A stretch of DNA of 64,000 nucleotides from contig OZ024752.1 in assembly GCA_964016885.1 (NCBI GenBank), forward strand, positions 47,492,001 through 47,556,000. Direction: 5' to 3'. This document shows positions 22,382-58,814 of this stretch, one piece after another (positions within the stretch are counted from its first letter, which is position 1; the number at the start of each line of letters is the position of its first letter). Position numbers and translations under genes: made by a program. The notes under the pieces are model-generated. The model saw only the letters and a list, made by a program, of their open reading frames with translations. It searched no databases and was not told the origin of the DNA. Source of the DNA: Eledone cirrhosa. Taxonomy: Eukaryota.

Positions 22382-22447
22382 TATTTTATCTGAAGAAGGC
22401 ATGCCATATTTTTAATAAGGTATCCCTGAAATATGTATAATGAAATA
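22382..22447 (+). ncRNA. Type I hammerhead ribozyme (family E) inside element 22198-22490
   Basis: UAUUUUAU-CUGAAGA-AGGCAUGCC..GGUAUCCCU-GAA-AUAUGUAU-A/AUGAAAUA. Confidence 0.75.
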
Positions 22448-22759
22448 AATATGGTTTTATAAATATAGTTTCCATTTGTTTAATATCGTATGTATATATA
22501 TATATTATTGTTATTATTATTATAACAATTAAATAAAGTACCAGTAATGCATTGGGGTCGATTTAATCGACTTTCCCCTCGCCCCAAATTACTGGCCTTG
22601 TGCCTATACTAGAAATCATTATTGTAACAATTAAAAGAGTTGGATTGGCAGAATTGGTGGAGCGGCAGACATCGTGCTGTGCAGCATATTGTAATGTCCC
22701 TTTACGTTCTGAGTTCCCCAACACACAATATATATTACTACACCATACACCATACAGAT

Positions 22760-22795
<36 letters not shown>

Positions 22796-22849
22796 ACACT
22801 CAATATACACCTCAACACACACAGCAGCACTAATGCTAGCACACTTCAA

Positions 22850-23900
22850 CACTGCACTATACCACACCACACTGCACCACACTACACTACACCACACCAC
22901 ACCGCACTACACCACACTATACCACACCGCACCACACCACACTACATCACACCCAACTACACTACACCATATTACACCGCACTACACTACACCACACCAC
23001 ACCACACCGCACTACACCACACTACACTACACCACACCACACCGCACTACACCACACTACACTACACCACACCACACCACACCGCACTACACCACACTAT
23101 ACCACACCGCACTACACCACACTACATCACACCCAACTACACTACACCATATTACACCGCACTACACTACACCGCACTACACCACACCACACTACACCAC
23201 ACCGCACTACACCACACTACATCACACCCAACTACACTACACCATATTACACCGCACTACACGACACCGCACTACACCACACCACACCACACCACACCGC
23301 ACCACACTACACTACACCACACCACACCACACCGCACTACACCACACTATACCACACCGCACTACACCACACCGCACTACACCACACTACATCACACCCA
23401 ACTACACTACACCACACTACACCACACCGCACTACACCACACCGCACTACACTACACCACACCACACCACACCACACCGCACTACACTACACCACACCGC
23501 ACCACACCATACCACACTACACTACACCACACTACACCACACCGCACTACACTACACCACACCACACTACACCACACCACACCACACCACACAACACCAC
23601 ACTACACCGCACCGCACCACACCACACCACACCACACTACACTACACCACACTACACCACACCGCACTACACTACACCACACCACACTACACTACACCAC
23701 ACAACACCACACTACACTACACTACACCGCACTACACCACACCACACCACACCACACCACACCACACTACACTACACCACACCACACCACACCACACCAC
23801 ACCACACAACACCACACTACACCGCACCGCACCGCACCACACCACACCACACCGCACCACACTACACCACACCACACTACACCACACCGCACCACATCAC
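22850..23900. repeat. Degenerate pentanucleotide array (CACCA/CACTA/CACCG)
   Basis: Seen directly; internal higher-order duplications (atcacacccaactac recurs). Confidence 0.95.
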
Positions 23901-24473
23901 AGCACTGTGCTGTGCTGCCATGACCTGAGAGCCAAGAAATAGCTGAGGGGTAAAACGAGGGAGGGTGGACTGGAGAGGGGTATGTGCTTGGGTTATAGGG
24001 AGCAGGGGTGCTGGGTGGGGGGTGGAGAGGGATATGTGGTTGGGATCTAGGGAGCTGGTGGGGAGGGGGGGGGGGAGGAATTGAGTTAGGGGACCAAGGC
24101 ATATATAATATAAAATAAATTCAGATAAGAGAAGATGGCAGATCAATTCACAGCTACTATTGACAGTATCTTGAAAGAAGGTGTGGTAAAACTGAAGATG
24201 TGGGAGTACTCAATAGGGGAGAGAGAGGGGGTGGTTATATATATATATATATACTCCCACATCTTATATATATATATATATATACACACACATATATACA
24301 TAACGCTTGTGTGTGCGTGTATGTATATATATATATATGTATATATATATGTTCATTTGTGCATATATAAAAGCACACACATACATATATACATATATAC
24401 ACAGGCATATATACACAGGCATATATATATATACAATAAATATATATGCGCATATGTGTATATATATTATATA

Positions 24474-24518
<45 letters not shown>

Positions 24519-24620
24519 CATAAGTCATCATCATCATTTTACATCCGCTTTTCCCTGCTTGCATATATACATATATATATGTATATATATATGCGCATAT
24601 ATATATATAAATATATATAA

Positions 24621-24706
<86 letters not shown>

Positions 24707-24757
24707 TTATATATATGTATATATATGTATATATATTTATATATATGTATATATATA

Positions 24758-24794
<37 letters not shown>

Positions 24795-24828
24795 ATATAT
24801 ATATATATATATATACTTATATATACAT

Positions 24829-24860
<32 letters not shown>

Positions 24861-25206
24861 GTTTATATATATATATAATTTTTAGCACTTCCTTTTGTGA
24901 TTTCCTTTTCTCTCTATGTTTTCATTCCTTACCATTTTTATCTTCCGATGACACAGTTGTTGTTGTTGTTGTTGTTGTTGTTGTTATTGTTGTTGTTTGT
25001 GTTGTTGTTGTTGACAATTGGGGCAATGGTTTACTTGCTCTTCATTTTATAATTTTCTCCAGTGTATTTTTTATTTTGTTTTGAATTTGTCTACTCATAT
25101 ATATACATACTACATACATATATACATACATACATACATATGCATATACATCCATACATTCATATGTACATATATACATACATACATACATACATACATA
25201 CATACA

Positions 25207-25237
<31 letters not shown>

Positions 25238-25282
25238 GCATATACATCCATACATTCATATGTACATATATACATACATACA

Positions 25283-25313
<31 letters not shown>

Positions 25314-25369
25314 GCATATACATCCATACATTCATATGTACATACATATGTGCATACAGACATACATAC

Positions 25370-55735: not shown

Positions 55736-56029
55736 CTAAAAAAGTCTAAAGTCTGTCTTAAGCCAGAAGGCTCATTTGGCCGGTGCTTTTCCCAGTTTCA
55801 TGGCGTGAAGTGACTGAGAGTACAAGACTCCCCCCTGGACAGGACGCCAGTCCATCGCAGGGTTAAACCTCCAGTTATTGGTGGTACTCATTTTCAGCTG
55901 AGTAAACTGGAGCAACGTGAAATAAAGTGTCTTGTTCAAGGAAACAACACATCACCCGGTCCGAGAATTGAACTCACAACCTTTCGATTGCAAGTCCAAT
56001 GCTCTAACCACTAAGCCATGTGCCTTCAC
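55736..56029 (-). mobile_element. SINE with S2 head but a different 3' half; 12-bp target-site duplication
   Basis: ACTTCTCTCTAT at 55724-55735 and 56030-56041. The head matches S2 up to CTCAGCTG, then continues CCCTGCGATGGACTGGCGTCCTGTCCAGGG. Confidence 0.85.
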
Positions 56030-56771
56030 ACTTCTCTCTATATACTGAAAATCCAAAGCGGGTTCAATAAAGATAAATATATATCAAATATATAAGAACC
56101 CTAGAGCAAATATTTATAAAAAAAAAAAATAACAGATCAAGGGTGAAAGCAGCAATTCTTTGCTTAAACTTTAATCTGTTATTTTAATGAATATATATAT
56201 ATAGGGTTAGGTTCACCATAATATTTTAGGTGATTAGGGCCTCGAAAGGATTTAATCCAGCCCTGGGCTATACAGTGGGATCAAACTTGAACCTCATGAT
56301 TGTGAATCAATCTCTTTAACTACTCGACTCTTCTGTGTCTATTTCTGAACAGCACGTGACTATTACTTAACAACCTGAAACTATTACTTAGCAGCATGTA
56401 ATTAATAGTTAACAGTAATTATTGACTCAACACTAATGTTTGCAGTATTTATTTAGAAATTTACTATAAAACATATAAAAACAACATCCATTCTATTGCT
56501 TTATTTGACTAGTAATTAATTTAAAGTAGTTACAGTTAATGGATTAATTCTAGTCCTTTTTGAGATGGGAAAAAACTAGCTTTAACTGAAAATCATAATT
56601 AAGCTCTAGCTTTCACTCAGTGGGAGAAGAACCAGTATGAATTCCTTAACCCTTTTGATACGAAAGCACCTGAAACTCCTCCTCGTTCTTCAATAAAAAG
56701 CTGCTTATTTTAAATTGTTTATACTTATTTAAAAGAAAAACAACCCCACATCATAATTTTATATAAGAACA

Positions 56772-57165
56772 TAATTGTTTATACTTTTGGCACAAGGCCA
56801 GCAATTACCTAGTTCATTACTGGTACTTTTATTTTATCGACCCCGTAAGGATTAAAAGGCAAAGTCAACCTCGGCGGGATTTGAACTCAGAATGGCAAGG
56901 GCCGTAACTCTATGCGTCAAAGCATGGCGTCCGACCCTCTACCGATACTGCTAATCCACCGCCATTAAAAATAATTGTTTCTACTTTTTGGCACAAGGCC
57001 AGCAATTACCCAGTTCATTACTGGTACTTTATTTTATTGACCCCGTAAGGATTAAAAGGAAAAGTCAACCTCGGTGGGATTTGAACTCAGAATGGCAAGG
57101 GCCGTAACTCTATGCGTCAAAGCATGGCGTCCGTCCCTCTACCGATACTGCCAATCCACCGCCAA
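56772..57165 (-). mobile_element. SINE S1 dimer with 16-bp target-site duplication, nested in MITE M2
   Basis: TATATAAGAACATAAT at 56760-56775 and 57166-57181. Confidence 0.9.
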
Positions 57166-57394
57166 TATATAAGAACATAATACAAAACAACGAGGAAGTT
57201 AGTTGTTTTACAGAATCCTTCAAAATTCTTAATTTTCAATATGACTCGAAAATTATAGACAGAGGTTTTTTTTCATTAAGGATATGTTAACGAAAGGGTT
57301 AAAAGAGTTCAAGTTATTAAAATGGCAGTGGCATTGGAATACAGGGTAATAGTGTCGTGTAATCTCCAAACTGACAATAGGAGTTGTGTAATTT

Positions 57395-57773
57395 GCAAGC
57401 AGGGAAAAGCGGACGTAAAATGATGATAATGATGGTAATGATGATGATAATGATGATGATGATGATAATGATGGTAATGATGATGATGATAATGATGATG
57501 GTGATGATGATGGTAATGATGATGATGGTAATGATGATGATAATGATGATGATGATGATAATGATGATGATGATGATGATGGTAATGATGATGATGGTAA
57601 TGATGATGATGATGATAATGATGGTAATGATGATGATGATAATGATGATGGTGATGATGATAATGGTAATGATGATGATGTTGATGATGGTAATGATGAT
57701 AATGATGATAATGATGGTAATGATGATGATGATGATTATGATGATGGTGATGATGGTGATAATGATGATGATA

Positions 57774-57815
<42 letters not shown>

Positions 57816-57841
57816 TGATGATGGTAATGATGATGATGATA

Positions 57842-57889
<48 letters not shown>

Positions 57890-57930
57890 ATGATGGTGAT
57901 GATGATCATGATGATAATGATGATGATGAT
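57395..57930 (+). repeat. S2/RTE-type 3' end with a greatly expanded (ATG)n tail
   Basis: GCAAGCAGGGAAAAGCGGACGTAAAA followed by about 500 bp of degenerate ATG repeats. Confidence 0.85.
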
Positions 57931-58171
57931 TCAAGATGGATTCTGCTAAGTGTACAGCAAATATTTTCTGACAATAAAAAAATATGAAACGGGGATCCCG
58001 GCATGGCAGTGTGGGTAAGGTTTCATCTCACACCCACAAGGTTTCAGGTTCAAATCCAATGTGCGGAACCTTGGGAATAAATTCTTCTACTATAGCTTCA
58101 AGTTGTCTAATGCCATGTGAGTGAAATTTGGTAGACGAAATCTGTGCAGAAGCCCATTATGTATGTATGTA

Positions 58172-58362
58172 TGGAGCGGTGGATTGGCAGTATCAGTAGA
58201 GGGTCGGACGCCATGCTTTCCAGCATAGTTACGTCCCTTTACGATCTGAGTTCGAATCCCGCCGAGGTTGACTTTGCCTTTCATCCTTACGGGGTCGATA
58301 AAATAAAGTACCAGTAATGTACTGGGTATTTGCTGGCCTTGTGCCTAAAGTAGAAACAATTA
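58172..58362 (+). mobile_element. SINE S1, full length
   Basis: B box GAGTTCGAATCCC with S1 body and tail. Confidence 0.9.
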
Positions 58363-58529
58363 TGTCTGTATGTATGTGATCAACACACAATCACATACAC
58401 ACAATCACATACATACACATGCAATCACACACGCACAATAACATACATAAACAAATACATGCAATCACACATACATTCACATACATAAACATACATACAC
58501 ATAACCCATACATTCACATACATAAACAT

Positions 58530-58562
<33 letters not shown>

Positions 58563-58625
58563 CATAACACATATATTCACATACATAAACATACATACAC
58601 ATAACCCATACATTCACATAAATAA

Positions 58626-58689
<64 letters not shown>

Positions 58690-58743
58690 GATTTAAAACT
58701 GCACTATCCACAAGTGTTTTTTAACCTTCATATCATGTCTTCC

Positions 58744-58814
58744 TATTTTATCTGATGAAAACACAAATATTATCGCATGATGATATTTGTTTTTGAAATG
58801 CGCATAATAAAATA
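58744..58814 (+). ncRNA. Type I hammerhead ribozyme (family F, canonical core)
   Basis: UAUUUUAU-CUGAUGA-AAACACAAAUAUUAUC(GCAU)GAUGAUAUUUGUUUUU-GAA-AUGCGCAU-A/AUAAAAUA. Perfect 8-bp stem I and palindromic stem III. Confidence 0.8.

Follow-up and report, generated by a model that had tools for sequence, protein, structure and literature searches.

The Penelope-like elements of metazoans carry minimal hammerhead ribozymes in their pseudo-long terminal repeats (pLTRs), in families that are full of compensatory changes (Cervera and De la Peña 2014, PMC4209133), and Craig et al. (2021, PMC8557442) list hammerheads for the Hydra clade of these elements, including that of Hydra-1_Obim from Octopus bimaculoides. 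What the hammerheads do there is debated: they may simply parasitize the elements, as Craig et al. suggest, or be dispensable for insertion, as seen in vitro (PMC11167929). Two hammerhead families, which we call E and F, occur in a stretch of 64,000 nucleotides from Eledone cirrhosa (the window; assembly GCA_964016885.1, contig OZ024752.1, positions 47,492,001 to 47,556,000). Judging from their sequences, E and F come from two sister Penelope-like retrotransposons of the Hydra clade, of which they form the 3′ ends (pLTRs); each has a type I minimal hammerhead whose stem III is no more than an 8-nt palindrome. We consider it probable, at about 0.8, that this hammerhead is kept in the source elements, where it would cut in transcripts that contain two copies and so aid transposition, and that lone inserted copies decay.

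Coding parents were found for both E and F. A protein search gave 150 scored copies, from which 12 with long open frames were taken for study. In a long copy at locus L188, a reverse transcriptase (RT), a CxCX5C linker, a GIY-YIG-type endonuclease, a long 3′ untranslated region (UTR), an E hammerhead and (TA)n are joined, and an intact frame lies between two same-strand hammerheads 3.7–3.9 kb apart at three E loci among these 12 (L235, L236 and L238) and at two F loci (L221 and L222). The elements have one open reading frame (ORF) for RT and endonuclease, with intact frames of 725–808 aa. Their nearest Atlas clusters carry GIY-YIG, RVT_1 and HTH_animal, families that are annotated on part of the members, and searches of the element ORFs against Pfam and PDB sequences gave no significant match. 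The alignment, read by eye, contains DKT, RxRW (an RWK-like motif), the CxCX5C linker, and CxxC and CxH around E and N; we assign the elements to the Hydra clade because these motifs match the marks described in PMC8557442. The E and F proteins are 52–54% identical, with saturated synonymous divergence (dS), and the stem I and triplet that the two families have in common come by descent from sister elements, that is, by conservation and not by convergence. An interpretation of E and F as non-autonomous retrozymes was rejected once the coding parents had been found, and that of a conserved upstream motif as a splice donor was dropped on account of the GT missing in one clade.

Both families are abundant: a 31-nt flank of E is matched exactly 38,524 times in the 3.0 Gb host genome and a 27-nt flank of F 14,238 times, versus 0 for the reversed control in each case. 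The E copies are 5′-truncated, and past their 3′ end (n = 126) 46 have a tail, 73 run into (TA)n and 7 do neither; the 73 of the 80 tail-less copies that continue into (TA)n compare with 18% of random 22-mers. The tail is the beginning of the next unit, a tandem pLTR arrangement is present in 5 copies, and the start codon comes about 190 nt after the upstream pLTR. An opposite-strand partner occurs within 4.5 kb of 58 of the 126 copies. A sister hammerhead family, with stem I and palindrome unchanged but a stem II starting GGAC, was also seen (at L006:2243, and upstream of the window at distances of about 60.7 kb and 141.4 kb), as were further hammerhead families with the palindrome ACUAGU and further Hydra-like coding fragments in the flanks of L014, L030, L017 and L019.

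The constraint on the core was measured on E copies chosen by their 3′ flank only, the core not being used, from most of the first 100 places listed and from 464 kb around the window. The 126 hits were reduced to 96 insertions by merging neighbouring near-identical copies and then to 90 by dropping six that did not span the hammerhead; the pairwise distance between these has a mean of 0.21 and a maximum of 0.46. None of the 11 core columns has a shared variant, defined as one carried by at least three insertions, whereas 59 of the 68 columns upstream and in the spacer do (p = 2e-8). Over all 90 rows the core is invariant save for 8 single cells (1–2 single copies per differing column), and the triplet is AUA. 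The sequence-only reading of the window had pointed out that three E cores, CUGAAGA, CUGAUGA and CUGACGA, differ only at position 7, known to tolerate any base; these cores are indeed present, at 22390, 32968 and 47085, and all four bases occur at that position in the 90 insertions (U 65, A 10, G 9, C 6). On a tree of 73 rows, built from the columns upstream of the hammerhead only, position 7 changed at least six times and each core column 0–2 times. CpG decay was rejected as the source of the variation at N7 or 11.1, with G8A seen in 0/90 and G12A in 0/87. The elements picked by their protein agree: the hammerhead lay within the fetched stretch in 10 of 12, and its core was intact in 10/10, with a pairwise dS of 0.15–0.57 and a far lower nonsynonymous divergence (dN). 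By simple arithmetic, the chance that 11 neutral sites remain unchanged at a dS of 0.57 is about 0.002.

The mutations private to single copies behave otherwise. Within subfamilies (29 E and 18 F copies), they fall on 4 of the 517 cells of the core and on 49 of the 7161 outside it (p = 0.78), and in the mixed sample, where 78 of the 90 E rows have a close neighbour, on 6/834 core cells versus 122/8982 over all non-core columns (p = 0.15). The ratio of shared to private changes is 0:6 in the core and 105:81 in the flank (p = 0.008). Core decay is also visible in the window, in an F copy with U at position 3 (core at 20490); truncation at the cleavage site was seen in isolated cases only. A core mutating as fast as its flanks had been named beforehand as the observation that would speak against selection. 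This is what the private, post-insertion mutations do within subfamilies, and what the shared ones do not do, so the two classes must be kept apart. Since private mutations within subfamilies reach the core about as often as the flanks, selection acted on the source elements and not on the inserted copies. The selection on source elements proposed in the sequence-only reading is thus borne out, in that the 11 core positions have no shared variant in lineages where position 7, the flanks and the synonymous sites (dS up to 0.57) have changed; that catalysis was the selected property is what we infer from this pattern.

The earlier proposal that changes in stem II keep its pairing holds for the most part. 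In a register with the first base after A9 bulged, the shared derived pair types keep pairing in 12 cases and break it in 4, versus 3 and 18 for rare cells (p = 5e-4; 85 E copies with complete stem II). In the register of the sequence-only reading, the figures are 11/7 for shared types and 4/17 for rare ones (p = 0.01); there, the two stem II forms that it quoted differ by double changes at positions 2 and 6 and a wobble at 7, with a C·C at position 4 common to both. In that register the proposal does not fully hold for AGGCAUGCCA/UGGUAUCCCC, which has an A·C next to the core as well as the C·C at position 4. The bulged register fits E better at the base of stem II, and we prefer it because it does away with the U·U and A·C mismatches shared there and because it matches the unpaired base in PMC4209133. 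Since the sister family fits only the unbulged register, the base of stem II may slip between the two. In the bulged register, the position of G10.1-C11.1 in E is paired but rarely G-C (G·U 40, A-U 38 and G-C 3 of 85), and the published Hydra motifs likewise vary at this position (PMC8557442).

Stem I is 98.7% paired, all four of its shared changes are wobble or Watson-Crick, and it is extended by a further 10-bp helix with the 3′ flank. At several stem pairs, G·U states lie between A-U and G-C. The covariation score (59 distinct E rows) exceeded that of 500/500 shuffles, a control that ignores relatedness, and that of all slid registers; a one-base bulge was misplaced in about 13 alignment rows, which under-counted two distal pairs and was corrected in the keep/break counts. 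At its fourth position, stem II has an unpaired base that is C in 87 of 90 E copies, and C stands there in F and in the sister family as well. As for stem III, the palindrome is AUAUGUAU in 47 of the 90 E insertions and AUAUAUAU in 35, both shared forms being self-complementary, and co-folding of two F copies gave an intermolecular stem III.

An 8-nt palindrome would form a stable stem III only between two hammerhead copies. In a transcript with two copies, whether pLTR-ORF-pLTR or tandem, the two palindromes would pair to make a double hammerhead, which would be cut after AUA, and the cut would probably release or trim the element RNA out of longer transcripts; a lone copy would fold poorly and rarely cut. 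Circularisation and translation are other possible purposes of the cut. The basis for such dimeric cutting is the general knowledge of hammerheads together with PMC4209133 and PMC6765202. An intact core would help transposition in vivo, because source elements with a broken core have left no detectable subfamily. The RNA template for insertion would have an uncut (or rejoined) 3′ hammerhead, because the insertions extend beyond the cut site, by about 50 nt or, where the tail is present, by about 140 nt; an uncut template is in line with PMC11167929.

Several observations weigh against this explanation. In the mixed sample, private changes are rarer in the core than upstream (6/834 versus 81/3882, p = 0.006); we read the upstream excess as unsampled lineage changes plus alignment noise, yet it counts against simple neutrality. 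Pairing is broken by four shared stem II types; a single distal pair in one clade accounts for three of these, and CpG decay may explain the fourth. Double changes are found at only four pairs. The lowest-energy co-folds of three E copies contained no double hammerhead. For a Poseidon element, hammerhead mutants were without effect on insertion in vitro, and no reads ending at the cut site were reported (PMC11167929). Moreover, non-catalytic parts (the 31-nt 3′ flank, the stem III arms and the unpaired C's) vary no more than the core does, so that protein binding may account for some of the constraint. This last point leads to the main rival, in which the element retains the hammerhead fold as an RNA handle for its protein, for template selection near the sites where reverse transcription starts, the cutting being incidental. 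To the invariance of the stems, unpaired C's and flank, this explanation can add the uncut hammerheads within insertions and the finding that cleavage depended on protein and that insertion in vitro could do without it (PMC11167929). We nevertheless think it unlikely, as the invariant set is exactly the catalytic core, with position 7 free, in both E and F, while the E and F UTRs share only low-complexity matches among those displayed.

The region might instead be conserved as DNA, as an internal promoter of the pLTR or a recognition site of the endonuclease, with the hammerhead as a passenger. The upstream pLTR lies ahead of the start codon, and promoters are described in the pLTRs of other Penelope-like elements (PMC8557442); the changes, however, pass through G·U wobbles and compensate across 20–50 nt, a signature of RNA, which makes this explanation very improbable. 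Slimmer still is the chance that few copies, recent common ancestry, CpG decay or a bias of the search towards intact motifs produced the whole pattern as an artefact. Such an artefact would be suggested by the three E copies of the sequence-only reading, by the small number of independent compensatory events, and by changes at a stem II CpG (C-to-U and G-to-A), some of which resemble decay. It is already largely refuted: copies were selected by flank or by protein and never by core, the E insertions are as far apart as stated above, and CpG decay would also have yielded the missing G8A and G12A.

Constraint on the source lineages with decay of the copies bears on the debate over the role of these hammerheads. 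A core under purifying selection in spreading lineages and unprotected in inserted copies argues for a benefit to the element, and this can be tested directly on the young intact elements that have both pLTRs. A bolder interpretation, which we regard as possible but doubtful, is that E and F, together with the sister family, represent a hammerhead variant of their own, in which the unpaired C of stem II, as invariant as the catalytic core across source lineages, may touch the extended stem I through a tertiary or protein contact, and that the subfamily series is a natural mutagenesis record of cleavage required for Penelope-like transposition in vivo. If true, this would contradict both the dispensability in vitro and the suggestion of parasitism.

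The window itself is non-coding and rich in microsatellites, and the E and F copies first noticed in it span 22382–58814, from the first stem I base of the first E copy to the last base of an F copy. As had been noticed from the letters alone, E and F have in common an 8-bp stem I (UAUUUUAU with AURAAAUA) and the AUA triplet but differ in stem II and in the palindrome (AUAUGUAU in E, AUGCGCAU in F); all of these, with the quoted stem II strands, were located in the window copies. The first E hammerhead (22382–22447, + strand; N7 = A, core CUGAAGA at 22390–22396, predicted cleavage after 22439) has an A·A break, private to this copy, at the top of stem II and belongs to a 5′-truncated element end (22309–22502, +) that ends in (TA)n and has an inverted tail, that is, the start of the next unit (22176–22289, −). 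The second (32912–32976, −; N7 = U, core CUGAUGA at 32968, predicted cleavage after 32920), of a subfamily with an A-U rich stem II, lies in a 5′-truncated end with the tail in direct orientation (32792–33046, −). The third (47028–47093, −; N7 = C, core CUGACGA at 47085, predicted cleavage after 47036) is of a young subfamily, in which 46 of the 60 matches listed show no difference over 162 nt (with 40 of the 778 candidates scored); its element end (46976–47247, −), with an inverted tail at 47256–47370 (+), matches the 3′ end of the long RT-endonuclease copy at L188 with 99.6% identity. F hammerheads are found at 46813–46884 (−; N7 = C, core at 46876, in an element end at 46757–46945) and 58744–58814 (+; N7 = U, core at 58752, predicted cleavage after 58806, in an element end at 58689–58870). 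Outside 22382–58814 are the F hammerhead with U replacing C3 (20482–20552, +), in a longer F fragment at 20186–20596, and an F fragment truncated within the hammerhead, with an inverted tail (4550–4728, strand unassigned). An F copy on the same strand follows 209 nt downstream of the young E copy (46813–47093, −), and the palindromes of the two could pair at 7/8 positions, so that a mixed dimer is conceivable.

A structure-filtered descriptor requiring a palindromic stem III besides the core and stems I and II found 24 motifs in 464 kb (the window and its surroundings) versus 0 in each of five local shuffles, which is more than chance would give. Rfam gave no hammerhead family for two stretches searched singly, and, for the whole window, the 150 of 394 rows viewed were microRNA models on microsatellites and inverted repeats. 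A general repeat search of the window was dominated by tandem arrays, and tblastn detected no F coding part within it. Two other hammerhead-like motifs are present: one of type I at 6148–6188 (+; core CUGAAGA at 6153, palindrome ACAAUUGU), within a long hairpin and with an irregular stem II base, and a small minimal one at 20000–20040 (+; core at 20006), with a bulged A and G10.1-C11.1 and a relative in L002. Long perfect inverted repeats of other families (21716–21828, 22020–22165, 42127–42270 and 46259–46467) often adjoin E and F ends in (TA)n and are possibly the inverted ends of other Penelope-like elements. The window also contains a 72-bp satellite in both orientations (7862–12010 and 36955–37814) and a repeat of about 180 bp that resembles a short interspersed nuclear element and is often in tandem (27878–28257, 38633–39506, 52298–53504 and 56767–57164), one copy of which interrupts the RT frame in L188.

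In the literature, the motif, its location and the compensatory variation among families are already described, and E and F themselves are new. We found no paper on these families or on a test that separates shared from private changes (subscription papers and Repbase being outside the scope of the search), and a term search of the main text of a 2026 octopus repeat annotation (PMC13282606) returned no mention of hammerheads. What is added here is a clean separation of the constraint on source lineages from the decay of copies, with the result that would be expected.

Compared with the minimal hammerheads of PMC4209133, those of E and F have an extended, 8-bp stem I, a conserved unpaired C in stem II, and G10.1-C11.1 in a minority of E and not in F. 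Like the Hydra-clade elements of PMC8557442, they come from elements with a C-terminal endonuclease, DKT, RxRW, the CxCX5C linker, CxxC and CxH, (TA)n targets, a hammerhead near the 3′ end, inverted 5′ segments and tails. However, the E and F units, which have pLTRs, are 3.7–3.9 kb long and those Hydra elements under 3 kb, the tails are about 90–110 nt versus 30–40, and the stems and palindrome of the Hydra-1_Obim hammerhead are different. As in the PAc Poseidon element of Anolis (PMC11167929), the hammerhead lies upstream of two alternative 3′ ends that define the tail, and the template is apparently uncut RNA; PAc Poseidon, however, is of another clade and has an ORF that overlaps the hammerhead, whereas in E and F the start codon is downstream of it. 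Finally, E and F resemble the metazoan retrozymes (PMC7229834) in having type I hammerheads in high-copy animal repeats, but the retrozymes are non-autonomous, while E and F represent protein-coding elements, of which they are truncated ends.

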